From positions 64,015 through 128,014 of IMG/VR virus record IMGVR_UViG_3300028832_000102: 64,000 nt of DNA; one strand, given 5' to 3'. The notes under the pieces are model-generated. The model was not told where the DNA came from. It searched no databases and saw nothing but the letters and a program-made list of their open reading frames with translations. Position numbers and translations under genes: made by a program. Positions 53,963-59,706 of the stretch are shown piece by piece (position 1 is the stretch's first letter; each line of letters opens with the position of its first letter). This DNA is from a virus. Its lineage: Duplodnaviria; Caudoviricetes.

Positions 53963-54043
53963 GTTTAAAATAAATCGCCCTTTACAAAACCATCCGTAGG
54001 ACGTAGATTGTGAAGTGAAGTGAACTGAAAACGTAAAATCAAG

Positions 54044-54331
54044 ATGGAAATTACAGGAAATGTTATTGCGGTACTACCAGCCCATAGCGGCGTATCGCAA
54101 AGAAGTGGCAACCCTCGCCGTATGTGTTTTGGGATTTTTGGCGAAGAACGTATCAAGCAGTTCAACCTGCATCAGGGCGAACAAAACATCACAGTGCAGT
54201 TTGATATCGATGCACGCGAGTACAACGGACGCTGGTACAACGAGATTCGTGCCTACAACATTGTTCGTCCTTATACTCCGCAGGTTCAGACAACTGCACC
54301 AGCAGCTCCAGTCGAAGCCCCACCCTTCTGA
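54044..54331 (+). CDS. DUF3127-like OB-fold (SSB-like) protein, apparently internally deleted
   Basis: MEITGNVIAVLP..SGVS..SGNP, VQFDIDAREYNGRWYNEIRAY, C-terminal PF. Confidence 0.75.
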   Translation: MEITGNVIAVLPAHSGVSQRSGNPRRMCFGIFGEERIKQFNLHQGEQNITVQFDIDAREYNGRWYNEIRAYNIVRPYTPQVQTTAPAAPVEAPPF

Positions 54332-54372
54332 CATATTTAAGTATAGAAACAACGTTATGATTTTAAAAAGCG

Positions 54373-54681
54373 ATGAGAAGAAAAAGCGAAATACGCCAAT
54401 CAGCAGTGCCAGACTTTAATCAGTTCTGGGACGCATACAGGATAAAGAAAGACAAGAAAGCAGCCGAATCGGCATGGAACCGCCTTTCGACAAAAGACCG
54501 CCGTCTTGCCGTTGCTGGCATCACCGCCTATCGAGAGGATTGCCAGCGTTGTGGCATCAGCATGATGTATGCCCAGGGGTATCTGAACCACCATCGGTGG
54601 GAGGACGAGATAGAGGAAGACGAGGGTAGTATCCCCCGCCCTACCCCTCAGAAAATTTTCACAGAGATAGAGGAATGGTAA
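54373..54681 (+). CDS. Phage replication-organiser C-terminal-like small protein
   Basis: FNQFWDAY..KKDKKAA..AW..L..YLN..RWEDE. Confidence 0.6.
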   Translation: MRRKSEIRQSAVPDFNQFWDAYRIKKDKKAAESAWNRLSTKDRRLAVAGITAYREDCQRCGISMMYAQGYLNHHRWEDEIEEDEGSIPRPTPQKIFTEIEEW

Positions 54682-54682
54682 A

Positions 54683-54967
54683 CTACCTTACCGCCTTTAT
54701 CAGTTTGCCAACAACCCACATGACTCCGTCCCAGGTGGCGTTGCCAAGAATATTGGAAAGGAAATCCTGCGAGAATGTTTGTTGGCGATGACGAAGGTCC
54801 TGCAGCTGGGCTGACTGCTCCTGCAGGACCTTTTTAATTTCGTTGGCTGAGCGCTGCTGCATGGTCATCTGGACGAAGAGCCGTTTCTCTTCATCCGTCA
54901 TACGGTCGTACATCTCTTCTAGGAGCTTGCGGCGCATGAGTGCTTCTGCAGCAGCGGCATAGTTCAT
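54683..54967 (-). CDS. Hypothetical protein (Cys-rich operon, last gene)
   Basis: 94 aa; coiled coil then amphipathic C-terminus. Confidence 0.7.
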   Translation of the reverse strand: MNYAAAAEALMRRKLLEEMYDRMTDEEKRLFVQMTMQQRSANEIKKVLQEQSAQLQDLRHRQQTFSQDFLSNILGNATWDGVMWVVGKLIKAVR

Positions 54968-54969
54968 AC

Positions 54970-55473
54970 CTACCAGAGGAAATATTTTCGGATATTATAG
55001 ACGCCATCCTTGTCCTTCAGGTTTCTCAGTGCCATCTTGTAGCAGGCGGTGATGATATCCTTGTCGGTGGGCTGGAGTGGTTTCCCTATCAGGGCGGCTA
55101 TTTCCTCGCCGAAGTCAGAGTAAATCTTGTTCATCTCCGTCCAGAGGGCGCAGGAATTGTAATAAGGAGGCTCCTCTAGTGGTAGGCCGAAACTCTCCAT
55201 TGTACTTTTCCATGCGTCACGCTTCCACGGACCTGCAGGTTCCATGCCTGCAACGATCTTCTCTGCCTCTTTTGACGTGAGATACTGATTCCACTTGATG
55301 GCCTCCAGTTGGTCTATCATCTCCTCCGCCACGTCGGGCTTGTTGGTAATCAGGTAGTCCATCATCTCGGTCATCACACACCCGAAGGCCTTCATATTCT
55401 TCGGATCACGGCTTCCAGCCATGTAGTCGTAAAGACCGGTGTAGCGGTCTTTGAGTTCTTGTGCTGTTGTCAT
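54970..55473 (-). CDS. Hypothetical helical protein
   Basis: 167 aa; YN..ALW..MN..YSD and LKDKD motifs. Confidence 0.75.
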   Translation of the reverse strand: MTTAQELKDRYTGLYDYMAGSRDPKNMKAFGCVMTEMMDYLITNKPDVAEEMIDQLEAIKWNQYLTSKEAEKIVAGMEPAGPWKRDAWKSTMESFGLPLEEPPYYNSCALWTEMNKIYSDFGEEIAALIGKPLQPTDKDIITACYKMALRNLKDKDGVYNIRKYFLW

Positions 55474-55619
55474 TTCTTCTTCTTTTTAGAGGTTGTCTTC
55501 TTTGGTGTTGGCTGCGAGGGTTTCGCAGCATACGGAACACTTCCGCACGCGGGGCATGGTGTCTTTGGCACGCTACGCGTCGGCGTCGGTGCTATCTGCT
55601 GTTGGATAAATCTGCTCAT
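55470..55619 (-). CDS. Small basic CxxC protein (49 aa)
   Basis: Not in the ORF track: MSRFIQQQIAPTPTRSVPKTPCPACGSVPYAAKPSQPTPKKTTSKKKKK; stop overlaps the next ATG (ATGA). Confidence 0.65.
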   Translation of the reverse strand: MSRFIQQQIAPTPTRSVPKTPCPACGSVPYAAKPSQPTPKKTTSKKKKK

Positions 55620-55899
55620 ACGCTTTCAGGTAAAGTTGGTCGATGAATCCCATGAACAGCTCAAGCCAGATGGCCGCCCAGGCGCAGAGGAGGGCTGCGG
55701 CAACCAATTCGAGGATATCCTCGAATTGGTCTGAGCCTGTCAGCATGCCGTAAGCCAGTACCGTCCAGAAAGACATGCACTTCGGACAGTTAATGATCGG
55801 TAGCCTGTGTTTTACAGTCCTCTCGATCGCGGCTACCAGCCCGAGGTGGTTCGCTGCCACCACCGAGAAGGTAATCACCAGGTCATTGAGCCAGTCCAT
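55573..55899 (-). CDS. Membrane protein with CPKCMSFW motif (DUF1360-like)
   Basis: About 3 hydrophobic segments and CxxC.S.W. Confidence 0.6.
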   Translation of the reverse strand: MDWLNDLVITFSVVAANHLGLVAAIERTVKHRLPIINCPKCMSFWTVLAYGMLTGSDQFEDILELVAAALLCAWAAIWLELFMGFIDQLYLKAYEQIYPTADSTDADA

Positions 55900-55914
55900 A
55901 GGTTTTCTTTTTAC

Positions 55915-56394
55915 TTACGCCGTCGCTACGTTGATGCTTGTAGTGATGGCAATCTGGTTGGTGCAGGGCTTCGTGCTCTGGCAGCAGCCACAACCACCGG
56001 TGTTCATATACTGCGTGATAGGTTTCGGCGAAGCAGCAACAGTGCCGATAGTTAGTGTAGGCGATGTGGCAGCTGAGCACGGCAGACAGACACGCTTTGA
56101 CACGTACTCTACACGGGGTGTGCATGAGTTACACGGGCGGTAGGTCACAGTGCCTGCAATCTGACATTCCTGGCAGTAGGCATCGTTGCCTACGCTGATA
56201 GGTGTGCCGACGGGCGTTGCCGTCAATTCACAGAGTACAGGGTGTGTCGGGTCAACCAACAGCATCTGGCGGTTGCCACAGGTGTAGTGGGTCAGACCGA
56301 TTTCGTAGGTGGCATCAGCTGGTGTGCCGCCTGGGTACGGAACAAGAAAGTCCTGTGTGTCCTGTCCGTTCTTGCAGTTACAATTACACTTCAT
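55915..56394 (-). CDS. Cys-rich beta-type protein (15 Cys in 159 aa)
   Basis: CNCNC, CQEC, CNSC, CLPC, GCGCC. Confidence 0.75.
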   Translation of the reverse strand: MKCNCNCKNGQDTQDFLVPYPGGTPADATYEIGLTHYTCGNRQMLLVDPTHPVLCELTATPVGTPISVGNDAYCQECQIAGTVTYRPCNSCTPRVEYVSKRVCLPCSAATSPTLTIGTVAASPKPITQYMNTGGCGCCQSTKPCTNQIAITTSINVATA

Positions 56395-56465
56395 AATACT
56401 TTTGTTTTTGTGTTGATTATCTTGGGGGCCTTTCAGTGCGCCGCCCCTCGTATTGCGCTGTATCT

Positions 56466-57392
56466 CTATTCTGCGTCCTGGAAAAGATTTCCTTCCAGGG
56501 GCTGCGGACTGATGAACTCCGCTTCCGATGATTGGATGGCGGCGATGCGCTGCTCCAAGTCAGCAATATGCTGCGATTGAACATCTAGGCGTTGGATAAC
56601 GTTATTAAGCACGTCGAACATCTGGAAAGACATGCGTGCAGCACAAAAGGCATGCTGTTGATAGCCGCACTTGGTGCAGTCCTTCGGACATGGCCGCACC
56701 TGTCGCTGCGGTGCTGATTGCTGTTGTCCACCTGCATCCTGCTGTGTGTTATTATCTTGTTTCTCTGCCATAACTTATTTGAAGTAATTGATGATTTGAT
56801 TCTTTACTAAGGGATTCTTGTCCCAGTTTCCTATAGCCTTCGCCAGACGAGCAGCGTCAACAGCTCTGCCTTGGTGAGCATGATAGCCTATGAAAGCTAT
56901 GATGGCCATACGCAGGTCCTCGACCTCCTGTTCGTTTCTCGCATAGACATTGAAGGTGATGGGGAAACCATTGAATGGTTTTTGCTGGTTGTTATCTTTT
57001 TCGTCCATCATGTTGTTTTATTACTTGTTGATTTCTGGAAGTTCTACTACCGGTGCTTCAGGCTCCACGGCCTGTATTGTCAGCGGCGGCAGCTTGCCGC
57101 CTGTCATCTGGCGAATCATTTCGTAGCCTGTAGCTATCGTATTTTGGTTCTCCTTGATCCACGAGAACAACCCGGCAGCTGTCTGCTTTGTGGTGTCTAC
57201 CCATGTCGTAGGCGCAGGGTCGTAGTCGGGCAGTGATGGAATATCCTCTGCGAAGAAGTCGTAGAGCTTCTTTGCCTCGTCTATATCGCCCTTGGTGGCA
57301 AAGAGACACTGCAGCTTCAGCGATGCCTTGCTTGTCGGTCTGATTCCCTGTATCATCTCCAGTCGTTTCTTTTTGTTTGTAAACCATTTCAT
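56466..57392 (-). CDS. Hypothetical genes 56466-56771 (CPKDCTKC + coiled coil), 56775-57011 and 57021-57392
   Basis: Tightly spaced co-oriented ORFs. Confidence 0.7.
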
Positions 57393-57410
57393 TCATTTGC
57401 CGTGTTTGGT

Positions 57411-57534
57411 TAATTCAAGGAAATCGCTGAAATCTTGAATAACGTTTCCGCTAATTCAAAAAAAACGTCGAAATCCTTGAATAAAGGAAAGGAATTTAGG
57501 GGAAATCTTAGGAAAACTTCCCCTAATTCCTTTC
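57411..57534. repeat. Cluster of intergenic inverted repeats
   Basis: Two TAATTCAA...TTGAATAA units plus a GAAAGGAATTTAGGGGAA/TTCCCCTAATTCCTTTC hairpin. Confidence 0.65.
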
Positions 57535-57542
57535 GGGGTTGC

Positions 57543-58094
57543 TTAGCCGTTGCAACCGCAACCGGGGCAGCTACAGGGCTGGGGAGCCGAGTAGAGCATC
57601 ACGGGCTGTGCATCGAGGCTAGAGCGGCCTGTCAGACGGTCAGAGACAATCTGGTTCATAGCCGAAGCGTAGGCTGAGTTCTCAGCCACGGTACTCTGGT
57701 TCTGAGCCGTTGACTGCTGTCCGCTGATGGTGTCGGCAACAGATTGGGTGATGTTTATGTCACCCTGGATGCGACGGTTGACCTCAGACTCCAACAGAGC
57801 GCCAATGTTGTCGATACGCTTGTCTGCTCCGGTGTAGTAGGCCATAGCCAGTTCCTTGGCACTCTGGGCTGCCTCTTTGGCCTCCTTACCTTTGGCTGAT
57901 GCCTGCATGCCGCCAAAGATCCATGCGGTGATACCTGCAGCAGCAGCCACTGAAGCAACTGTTAATCCGGCGATAGCAACGCCACTGGGTTTCTTGGCCG
58001 ACATGTAGTCGAGCTTCACCTGCTCGTAGGGCGTCAGCTCGCTGCCTCCGTTCATCGACTTCAGCAGTGCAAGGTCATTAACATCTAATGCCAT
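57543..58094 (-). CDS. Single-TM coiled-coil protein with Cys-rich tail
   Basis: GVAIAGLTVASVAAAAGITAWIFGG TM segment; ends PQPCSCPGCGCNG; start MALDVNDL. Confidence 0.75.
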   Translation of the reverse strand: MALDVNDLALLKSMNGGSELTPYEQVKLDYMSAKKPSGVAIAGLTVASVAAAAGITAWIFGGMQASAKGKEAKEAAQSAKELAMAYYTGADKRIDNIGALLESEVNRRIQGDINITQSVADTISGQQSTAQNQSTVAENSAYASAMNQIVSDRLTGRSSLDAQPVMLYSAPQPCSCPGCGCNG

Positions 58095-58217
58095 AATCTT
58101 GAAATTTTTGTGTTGTGAATGAATAAAGTTAGCTGTAGCGGTCATCCTTTTTGGATTTCCGTTACGAAGTTAAACATAAAAAACGGCGCGCAAAAAGATT
58201 TTGGCTAAAATGGCGGT

Positions 58218-58499
58218 TCACACTTTGACCTGGCGCGAAAGCCTTTTGATAATACGCTTTGCCGTACTTTCGCTGACGTGATACTGCTTTCTGAAATGTT
58301 GGTATATTCGTTCCTTTGCTATACCTTCACGGCGCAGTGCCAGGTATTCCTCGTACATCTGGAGATATCTAACATCATCTACATGTAGACCACACTTTGA
58401 CATAACTTCCACTTGACATAGATTAAGTTTAAGCAGCATATAGCCACTGATTACCTCAATACTGTCAGGATTTTCAAAAGAAAAATTGTAATTTTGCAT
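58218..58499 (-). CDS. Small C-terminal HTH DNA-binding protein
   Basis: IYQHFRKQYHVSESTAKRIIKRL. Confidence 0.65.
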   Translation of the reverse strand: MQNYNFSFENPDSIEVISGYMLLKLNLCQVEVMSKCGLHVDDVRYLQMYEEYLALRREGIAKERIYQHFRKQYHVSESTAKRIIKRLSRQVKV

Positions 58500-58502
58500 A
58501 AT

Positions 58503-58624
58503 ATTCGCAGTCTATTTTATTTTTAAAAACCATGTTACTTGGCGAAAGGATATAGTATAAGTCCTCCGTCAGGCTATGTAACATGGGGTTTGACTGCGAA
58601 TCAATTCCAGCCTGGCGGGGACTT
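58503..58624 (-). promoter_or_regulatory. Structured 5' leader with alternative pairings
   Basis: Long hairpin whose loop holds perfect 10- and 9-nt complements to sequence next to the 58499 ATG. Confidence 0.65.
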
Positions 58625-58634
58625 TTTGTTTCCA

Positions 58635-58670
58635 TAAAAATACACAAACATCCAGGTATCATCAAGGGCA
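58635..58670 (-). promoter_or_regulatory. Putative late promoter (TGCCCTTG-N20-TATTTTTA)
   Basis: CAAGGGCA at 58663-58670 with 20-nt spacer; points into the leader and the Cys-rich operon. Confidence 0.6.
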
Positions 58671-58695
58671 CATTTATAATTTTCTCTACCTCACA

Positions 58696-58727
58696 TTTGC
58701 GTAGTTTCGAGAAAAGCATTACCTTTG
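58696..58727 (+). promoter_or_regulatory. Host-type Bacteroidota sigma70 promoter
   Basis: TTTG-N20-TACCTTTG upstream of the lipoprotein gene. Confidence 0.7.
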
Positions 58728-58803
58728 CCACCGCTCTCAGTTGAGAGTCCAAACAAAAACGTTGGATTAACCTAATTTTTTAAAAACTTAAACTTTAACC
58801 AGA

Positions 58804-59706
58804 ATGAAGAAATCTTATTTGATGGCCTTGGCGGTGGCCTTCACTATGACCGCTTGTGAGAAACCTATTAGCGTGGAAGAAGGCAATGAGTCGCCCAGCG
58901 AGGTGACGCTGCCGGATGGCACTGTGGCGAAGACAAAGAAGTTCACGTTTACCTTGAAGGGTGACTTCACCAGCGAGTGGAAGCCGGTGACCCGTGGCTA
59001 CCTGGCAGCGGACGGGAAGGACCTGACCGATGTCTGGGTGCTGGACTACATGAACGGGAACCTGGTGCAGCAGATTCATCAGGATGACAACACGGCAGAA
59101 GATTTCGGAAAGCCAGTCATGCAGCTGGCGTATGGCGACCACCACATTTATTTCGTTGCCTCGCGTGGTCAGGGTGCCGACCTCGATACCGATGCCAAGA
59201 CGATTACCTTCTCGAAGGTGCTCGACACGTTCTACAAGGACTACGAGGTGAATGTTGTCAGTACCTCGAATGGCAACCGTGCTGTTACGCTCGATCGCTG
59301 CGTCACCCGCCTTCGCCTCACTTTCACCGATGCCGTAGCCACGAATACCGCCACAATAGCCATCGCTCCTGGTACTTGGTATTATGGCATCAACTACGCC
59401 ACCGGTCTGCCCGTTGCTGCCAAGTCTTCACAGGCTTCCAGCATCAATGTGCCTGTATCAGAGTTGGGCAAGGCTGGTCTGCAATGTAACCTCTTCGGCT
59501 TCTCCACTGCCGACGAGTGGAGTACCGATGTTGTCATCACCTCGCGTGATGCCGACGGCAACACCATCGGAGAGGCCACGCTCATCGCTGCTCCCTTCAA
59601 GGCGAACCGCATCTCAGAGTACTCCGGTCCGCTTTTCGGTTCTGAGGGCGACATGAGCCTGAGTCTGAATACTTCGTGGGACGAAGCATTTGAAGGCACA
59701 TGGTGA
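58804..59706 (+). CDS. Lipoprotein, FimB/Mfa2-like fimbrial fold
   Basis: Signal peptide II MKKSYLMALAVAFTMTA-C; VTLDRCVTRLRL; FKANRISEYSGPLF..W. Confidence 0.7.
   Translation: MKKSYLMALAVAFTMTACEKPISVEEGNESPSEVTLPDGTVAKTKKFTFTLKGDFTSEWKPVTRGYLAADGKDLTDVWVLDYMNGNLVQQIHQDDNTAEDFGKPVMQLAYGDHHIYFVASRGQGADLDTDAKTITFSKVLDTFYKDYEVNVVSTSNGNRAVTLDRCVTRLRLTFTDAVATNTATIAIAPGTWYYGINYATGLPVAAKSSQASSINVPVSELGKAGLQCNLFGFSTADEWSTDVVITSRDADGNTIGEATLIAAPFKANRISEYSGPLFGSEGDMSLSLNTSWDEAFEGTW

Follow-up and report, generated by a model that had tools for sequence, protein, structure and literature searches.

The window analysed here is a stretch of 64,000 nucleotides (nt) which forms the second half of a 128-kb phage record of IMG/VR (IMGVR_UViG_3300028832_000102), and the system in question is a run of ten small genes, named g1 to g10, on its minus strand at 54683-58499, with the neighbouring genes on the plus strand. 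The ten genes are a genuine unit which travels together in many rumen and gut phages of Bacteroidota, and no known family or fold accounts for it. The module may be a regulator-gated, very late operon that builds a membrane complex accessory to lysis or egress. This reading is offered tentatively, and it draws on the co-conservation of the unit, a late promoter motif found far above chance, three lineages in which the module adjoins lysis genes, the membrane segments of g2 and g7, weak Saf_2TM matches and the conserved control elements.

A co-conserved unit of ten genes

The ten genes were as follows.

58218-58499, minus strand: g1, a small protein of helix-turn-helix (HTH) type with 93 amino acids (phrog_17790; sub-threshold HTH and Mor matches)
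57543-58094, minus strand: g2, 183 amino acids, placed by homologue alignment
57021-57392, minus strand: g3, a soluble helical protein of 123 amino acids with LPD.DP..PTW and a conserved C-terminal LPPIN
56775-57011, minus strand: g4, a small protein of 78 amino acids, conserved in 17 loci
56466-56771, minus strand: g5, 101 amino acids, with a glutamine (Q)-rich N-terminus, a Cys pattern and a coiled coil
55915-56394, minus strand: g6, a predicted beta-sandwich protein of 159 amino acids with 15 Cys (alignment, AlphaFold2)
55573-55899, minus strand: g7, a polytopic membrane protein of 108 amino acids (alignment, hydropathy)
55470-55619, minus strand: g8, a polybasic peptide of 49 amino acids with CPAC, conserved in all 18 loci
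54970-55473, minus strand: g9, an all-helical DUF7841 protein of 167 amino acids (PF25223)
54683-54967, minus strand: g10, a helical protein of 94 amino acids whose C-terminal helix is amphipathic and whose end is basic

An earlier note, made from the sequence alone, had described ten Cys-rich minus-strand genes here, and all ten open reading frames (ORFs) were present with the motifs read at that time. Its picture of a tightly coupled run was right in that the genes form a contiguous minus-strand series, and has to be relaxed for three intergenic gaps of 123, 150 and 71 nt, which follow g1, g2 and g5 respectively.

Viral contigs were scanned with g6 and g2 as queries, which returned 24 loci, and the module order was read in 18 IMG/VR loci and 8 genome loci (single loci are labelled with L and a number below). 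When all ten proteins were compared by tblastn, the order g2 to g10 was kept in every IMG/VR locus with sufficient flank, at 25-90% identity. About 25 other loci retained the order in total, in IMG/VR phages, prophages of Prevotellaceae metagenome-assembled genomes (MAGs), Prevotella sp. tc2-28 and phage BS162P1. When species genomes were scanned with the alignment of g9, the complete g1-g10 set was obtained at seven loci, namely six rumen MAGs of Prevotellaceae, Bacteroidaceae or Bacteroidales and the isolate Prevotella sp. tc2-28; the eighth genome locus (L036) was interrupted inside g9, and L033 carried a short form. Since the gene order is conserved across the 18 IMG/VR and 8 genome loci, the ORFs are genes and not chance ORFs, and the co-conservation on which the earlier note had made its proposal depend was found.

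The cultured Bacteroides phage BS162P1 (OP172706.1), whose host is known, has the gene order of the module in genes BS162P1_00094 to 00101 (HTH, g2, g3, g4, g5, g6, g7 and g9). In this phage g2 ends in CCCNTGCGCNG, g5 has C-x3-C-x2-C, g7 has NHLGL and CSKC, and DUF7841 is present. It differs from the window in that no equivalent of g8 or g10 was seen, g6 has fewer Cys, and all the genes are annotated as hypothetical. Occurrence of the module in BS162P1, on Bacteroides salyersiae, and in the cultured lysogen Prevotella sp. tc2-28 makes its role directly testable.

A nucleotide search of phage records gave no match to the whole block. When all ten proteins were searched against Pfam and PHROGs, only sub-threshold noise was obtained beyond DUF7841 (g9) and phrog_17790 (g1), no enzyme family was matched by any of the ten, as the earlier note had expected, and no PHROG structural family was matched either. 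Literature searches for DUF7841, BS162P1 and DUF6808 found no paper. No description of the module was found in the libraries and literature searched, which agrees with the suggestion that it is self-contained and possibly undescribed.

The viromes of gut and rumen are dominated by Bacteroidota phages, the majority of whose genes lack an assigned function. The module is abundant, with at least 1959 clusters of g2 at 90% identity, none of which has a Pfam domain or a name, and 526 close clusters of g9, all unnamed. Pfam has a family for only one of the ten proteins, a domain of unknown function (DUF).

Control elements and a proposed expression cascade

Four elements of the module were recognised outside its coding sequences.

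58641-58670, minus strand: a phage-specific promoter-like motif, TGCCCTTG-N20-TA, an exact match ahead of the g1 leader
58500-58624, minus strand: the structured 5' leader of g1, with helices P1 and P2/P3
58135-58194, minus strand: a host-type promoter-like site and a hairpin between g1 and g2, recognised in the sequence here and in the corresponding region of nine relatives
57496-57526, minus strand: a terminator-like hairpin with a 14-pair stem, in the 150-nt gap after g2

Six exact copies of the motif TGCCCTTG-N20-TA were counted in the window, where 0.14 would be expected, and six was reached in none of 100 shuffles. Eleven copies were found genome-wide, including one that precedes the endolysin/terminase operon, and the copy at 58641-58670 stands about 18 nt ahead of the conserved RNA element. 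Among ten loci inspected, the motif preceded the g1 leader in three (the window, L017 and L018) and was absent in the seven other relatives. The proposal that the module is wired to the promoter of the structural genes was sound as far as the motif goes, which is real and stands before structural and endolysin/terminase operons too; it has to be amended in that the motif is lineage-specific and that a second, host-type promoter-like site lies before g2.

Three further features of the phage genome were recorded outside the module. A copy of the late motif at genome position 59360, before the window start, heads an operon (genome 59360-65007), about 2 kb upstream of an endolysin candidate. The candidate itself (genome 61488-62150) is a 220-amino-acid protein with a peptidoglycan-binding-like N-terminus, and the large terminase gene follows it closely. 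At genome 15114-15608 a multi-pass holin-like gene was seen.

In the g1 leader, helix P1 is formed by GTCCCCGCCAGG.. paired with ..CCTGACGGAGGAC, and it crosses P2/P3, which pair the P1 loop with a stretch ending 5 nt before the g1 ATG. The minimum free energy of the window sequence alone gave a z of -2.36. P1 was recovered by RNAalifold, and 6 of its 13 pairs had compensatory changes. The same arrangement was seen in 15 of 16 loci, where the partner of the 5' arm of P1 (GTCCCCGCCAG-like) lies 45-60 nt downstream, and the P1 loop pairs with sequence past P1, reaching to a few bases short of the g1 ATG; in these 15 loci both P1 and the loop-to-downstream duplex beat 200 shuffles (z -4 to -10) despite differing sequences. 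Because the two helix sets cross, the leader would be either a pseudoknot or a two-state switch covering and freeing the g1 start. The RNA switch of the earlier note is thus borne out as a conserved structured leader. Rfam 15, run over 54000-59500 at E up to 1, gave no leader family, and its sole match was a chance microRNA elsewhere. In L009 the leader element lies directly 3' of the stop codon of a co-oriented upstream gene.

Protein g1 matched phrog_17790, a family of unknown function, at 2.9e-9, while its residues 42-90 gave HTH and Mor matches below threshold (Mor PF08765, E 0.046 and 14.2 bits, cut-off 24.9). These matches are the basis for calling g1 an HTH protein, as the earlier note did. 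Homologues of g1 stand first in the module at 17 loci, and g1 is likely the regulator of the module. It resembles late activators of the Mu Mor/C type, which are small, have a C-terminal HTH and are encoded just upstream of the promoter presumably controlled; it differs from them in that the Mor match is sub-threshold and that activation by g1 would be read only from the degenerate -7 box ahead of g2.

Between g1 and g2 the window has TTTG at 58194-58191, an 18-nt spacer and TAACTTCG at 58172-58165, followed by the hairpin GTAACGG..CCGCTAC at 58165-58135. The same gap in nine relatives contained TTTG-N20-TAACTTTG, then GTAGCGG..CCGCTACAG and an A/C-rich leader, so that the host-type promoter pattern was present in all the relatives inspected, with the hairpin consensus GTAGCGG..CCGCTAC. 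The site ahead of g2 probably acts as a promoter. In one relative the hairpin stem is maintained by G-U pairs, which may speak more for a stem in the RNA than for an operator in the DNA. Further downstream, the terminator-like hairpin at 57496-57526 could lower the expression of g3-g10 relative to g2.

The conserved control elements are thus the HTH gene, the structured leader, and the host-type promoter with a 5' hairpin before g2, and from them we infer a cascade of three steps, with a late promoter, an RNA-gated g1 and a promoter for g2-g10. The phage-specific TGCCCTTG promoter would fire alongside the structural and endolysin/terminase operons. The g1 leader would then fold as P1 alone, or P2/P3 would form and cover the g1 start, and this fold would gate the production of g1. 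Next, g1 would act on the degenerate host-type promoter and hairpin ahead of g2, after which g2-g10 would be produced.

Membrane, Cys-rich and soluble proteins

The start of g2 was set at 58094 instead of the listed 58145, because the homologues begin at the MAL.. methionine. The protein has a conserved N-terminal part of 38 residues, one Gly/Ala-rich membrane segment (residues 39-57) and a Q-rich helical region, and it ends with C-x-C-P-G-C-G-C, in which C174, C176 and C179 are invariant; the window copy ends in CSCPGCGCNG. The membrane segment and the CSCPGCGC ending reported earlier were kept, and the start was corrected. Weak Saf_2TM matches were given by 4 of 19 g2 members. Only unnamed viral clusters were found for g2 in Protein Atlas, and profile searches of solved-structure sequences with g2 and g9 returned chance matches only. 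In spite of their membrane segments, neither g2 nor g7 matched a holin family. The topology type of g2 is that of the T4 T holin, in which a single membrane segment follows a short N-terminal part and precedes a large C-terminal domain. The i-spanin was considered for g2 and rejected, in view of the conserved 38-residue N-terminal part, the lack of a lipoprotein partner in the module, and the unimolecular spanin-like gene that L028 has of its own.

Proteins of a similar build stand next to DUF7841 in L027, L033, L038, L045, L047, L049, cr7_1 (gp03) and C3_41T2LP (gene 36). Like g2, they sit before DUF7841 and combine a hydrophobic segment rich in Gly with a coiled coil rich in Q/N; most of them end with P.P.CGC at the C-terminus. 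Profile-profile comparison with g2, however, gave no homology (probability 8%), and their cassettes have only three or four genes and lack g5-g8. They are architectural equivalents of g2 only. The short form in L033 consists of an HTH gene, a 219-amino-acid protein (Gly-rich hydrophobic segment, Q/N-rich coiled coil) and DUF7841, and the same trio was found in the crAss-like contig L027, where it is flanked by small multi-pass membrane proteins.

In g7 there are two strong hydrophobic segments, the first with NHLGL, and a basic loop with an invariant CxxC (C38 and C41; CPKC in the window copy). According to the positive-inside rule, this basic CxxC loop should face the cytoplasm. The best that DUF1360 gave for g7 was E 0.27. 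A lipobox scan of the module gave no real gene and only one frame-overlapping ORF in the g6/g7 region.

In g5 the invariant C-x3-C-x2-C-x7-C (C28, C32, C35 and C43) precedes the coiled coil, with CPKDCTKC in the window copy. Peptide g8 has CPAC and a poly-Lys tail with a net charge of +11, and overlaps the end of g7 by 47 nt and the start of g9 by 4 nt. Its conservation in all 18 loci, which upholds the hidden peptide of the earlier note, is strong evidence that g8 is translated. In the window, L007-L017 and L022, g8 and its equivalents were seen in two circularly permuted arrangements according to sub-lineage, with the Cys motif N-terminal or at the extreme C-terminus: one form begins with R.VP..PCP.C and has a Lys-rich tail, and the other has a Lys/Thr-rich head ending in ..RIPTARCPGC.

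The proteins could be assembled as follows. As a one-pass protein, g2 would have a glycine zipper as its anchor, followed by a Q-rich helical stalk with a Cys knot at its end, and together with polytopic g7 and its CxxC loop it would anchor the complex at the cytoplasmic membrane. The polybasic CxxC peptide g8 and the four-Cys coiled coil of g5 might join through shared metal or disulfide sites, and g3, g4, g6, g9 and g10 would be soluble partners. Disulfide or metal cross-linking, which the earlier note had suggested for the assembly, cannot be the essence of the module, since the g6 position of L040 is occupied by a Cys-free DUF11 protein and the g5 equivalent of L028 lacks the Cys part.

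The 15 Cys of g6 were counted as described before; C3, C39, C74, C91 and C103 are invariant and one further Cys is nearly so. The AlphaFold2 model is a confident beta sandwich, with a predicted local distance difference test score (pLDDT) of 82.5, in agreement with the beta protein of the earlier note. No signal peptide was found. Neither Pfam at E up to 1 nor Protein Atlas gave a family or a usable match for g6, Foldseek gave no match at E 0.001 or better in PDB and BFVD, and the best VIA-align match, to HSP20/CS sandwiches (Z 4.9, root-mean-square deviation 3.2, 81 residues aligned), was insignificant.

No other part of the module is as conserved or as widespread as g9. It matched PF25223 with 33.3 bits (cut-off 25.2) over profile positions 2-113 of 114, and PF25223 was found on all 120 listed homologue clusters; at 50% identity there are 293 representatives. 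The AlphaFold2 model is all helical with a pLDDT of 97.2, Foldseek against PDB gave no match at E 0.001 or better, and the best VIA-align match (Z 5.0) covered the first helices only. The Foldseek comparison called for by the earlier note thus leaves two confident models, g6 and g9, which have no solved relative. On account of its size, helical build and position g9 was tried as an endolysin, and this was rejected because the pLDDT-97 model had no lysozyme- or transglycosylase-like match.

For the remaining soluble proteins, a relative of g3 was found in L028 (1.3e-23), and equivalents of g4 in L028, L040 and BS162P1. No segment of g10 reached the hydropathy threshold, its C-terminal helix being only amphipathic, and no g10 homologue was detected in L028, where the gene after g9 is Phage_holin_4_1.

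Lysis-gene neighbourhoods and competing explanations

In L028 the genes g2, g3, g4, the Cys-free g5 equivalent, g6, g7 and g9 run directly into three lysis-type genes. In L038/L039, DUF7841 is followed by a hydrophobic 175-amino-acid protein without family match, Peptidase_M15_3 and DUF6808, and in L045/L046 the genes of Amidase_3 and DUF6808 lie directly before the cassette. A lysis cassette thus abuts the module in three of about eight independent lineages with readable flanks, which is judged to be more than chance gives for a three-gene target. This adjacency, seen in distant relatives, suggests that the module may act very late and at the cell envelope. Some further support comes from Bacteroides phage C3_41T2LP, in which a g2-like gene stands five genes before a PolyVal metallopeptidase gene, and from the late motif that precedes the endolysin candidate of the window genome by about 2 kb. 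The envelope action might consist in tuning the timing of lysis, in membrane disruption, or in presenting or releasing g6.

The lysis-type genes themselves deserve description. Those of L028 (6282-7706) encode Phage_holin_4_1, a DUF5675 protein with a His..Gly-Cys motif and a weak Tlde1 match, and a 170-amino-acid protein which has both a lipobox and a membrane segment at its C-terminus and resembles a unimolecular spanin. DUF5675 has been described as a C82-like peptidase lysin (preprint 10.64898/2026.04.11.717860). DUF6808 stands in unrelated contigs (L038 2867-3400 and L045 2569-3150) directly after an endolysin gene of differing family, Peptidase_M15_3 or Amidase_3; the one read, that of L038, has a hydrophobic start, and DUF6808 is a candidate for a spanin-type protein by which Bacteroidota phages would disrupt the outer membrane.

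Several observations weigh against a role in lysis or egress. The window genome has its endolysin candidate about 57 kb and its holin-like gene about 100 kb from the module, and a search of it for DUF5675, Phage_holin_4_1 and DUF6808 gave no match. The lysis cassettes of L028, L038 and L045 appear complete without the module. Other lineages adjoin integrase genes (L009, L018 and L047, the last with a three-gene cassette) or helicase/methylase genes (L040), and no lysis gene adjoins the module in these four. The late motif is missing from most relatives, which seem to depend on the host-type promoter, and expression outside the late phase fits this as well. In Pfam and PHROGs no module protein matched a family of holins, spanins or antiholins, and g6 is without a signal peptide.

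Compared with known lysis cassettes and their accessory regulators (S/R/Rz/Rz1 of lambda; T of T4 with RI and RIII), the module has in common the many small membrane proteins and late expression, the latter being inferred for the module. It differs in that it has no peptidoglycan hydrolase, lipobox protein or holin-family match, and adds many soluble partners, an HTH regulator of its own and a structured leader. If the module does act at lysis, it would be an extra component for the standard model of Gram-negative phage egress. It is a doubtful, though not far-fetched, further step to regard it as a class of phage machinery not recognised before, though widespread among Bacteroidota phages, in which a regulator- and RNA-gated, membrane-anchored complex held by shared Cys/metal sites, and built on g6 and DUF7841 folds without solved relatives, would perform a distinct late envelope step beyond the holin-endolysin-spanin scheme.

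A rather unlikely explanation is an accessory operon of moron type, with its own regulator and host-type promoter, possibly expressed in the lysogen and altering the host envelope by superinfection exclusion, receptor masking or other lysogenic conversion. The conserved host-type promoter-like site and the dedicated HTH gene before g2 would suit such an operon, as would the flanking integrase genes of L009, L018 and L047 and the position of the module in the window, among accessory genes and back to back with a lipoprotein gene having a host-type promoter pattern upstream. The ends of late or lysis operons are classic sites of moron insertion, lambda bor being an example, and insertion there would also explain the adjacency to lysis genes. 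However, DUF7841 and a protein of g2-like build occur in the crAss-like phages L027 and cr7_1 as well, for which lysogeny is not known. In the window, L017 and L018 the unit stands behind the late motif, and a moron would not usually be as large as nine or ten co-conserved genes.

It is less probable still that the proteins belong to the virion, either as fibre or decoration, with g2 as stalk and g6 as knob, or as ejection proteins inserting into the host membrane. The module and the structural genes have the promoter motif in common, the g2-like proteins of cr7_1, cr124_1 and C3_41T2LP are annotated as "outer capsid protein/viral fiber" in databases, the DUF7841 set of L027 lies between tail-fibre-like genes and the crAss ring protein gene, and the DUF11 sandwich domain, found at the g6 position of L040, is typical of surface proteins. 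That database label, however, most likely reflects coiled-coil similarity, and the profile comparison of g2 with these proteins gave no homology. In addition, the module is about 25 kb from the structural block and on the opposite strand, contains a regulator of its own and a polytopic membrane protein, and matches no structural family of PHROGs.

A protective assembly cross-linked by disulfides or metals like a spore coat or exosporium, the analogy drawn in the earlier note, is highly improbable: Cys clusters are conserved in g2, g5, g6, g7 and g8, and the SPOCS/DUF3794 spore-envelope proteins (CsxA, CsxC and CdeC), which form Cys-rich lattices (preprint 10.64898/2026.09.03.749163), are, like g6, small Cys-rich beta proteins thought to self-assemble, but of 16 proteins which occupy the g6 position none gave a match to the DUF3794/SPOCS model, the matches listed in the g6 fold searches included neither SPOCS nor CotE entries and reached only Z 4.9 to HSP20/CS domains, the Prevotellaceae and Bacteroides hosts do not sporulate, Cys-free equivalents exist in L040 and L028, and proteins without signal peptides would stay in the reducing cytoplasm of an anaerobe.

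Some neighbouring genes were also recorded. Downstream of g10, a conserved protein of about 165 amino acids which begins with MNNCKEF.LDDL.AITAIPV is encoded in L008 (8060-8563), L009 (8589-9170), L014 (5412-5903), L018 (9708-10193) and L017 (10044-10550), and the TGCCCTTG motif was found between g10 and the gene of this protein in L008, L009, L014, L018 and L022. The annotated coding sequence of crAss-like cr7_1 gp03 (L050 4866-5669) has 6 in-frame stops with table 11, which suggests stop-codon recoding in the phage or a coordinate offset. In the window, the gene back to back with the module (58804-59706, plus strand) encodes a lipoprotein of 300 amino acids, with a lipobox (..FTMTAC) followed by acidic residues like the surface-export signal of Bacteroidota, and a TTTG..TAnnTTTG pattern lies upstream of it near 58696 on the plus strand; this is a candidate gene for lysogenic conversion.

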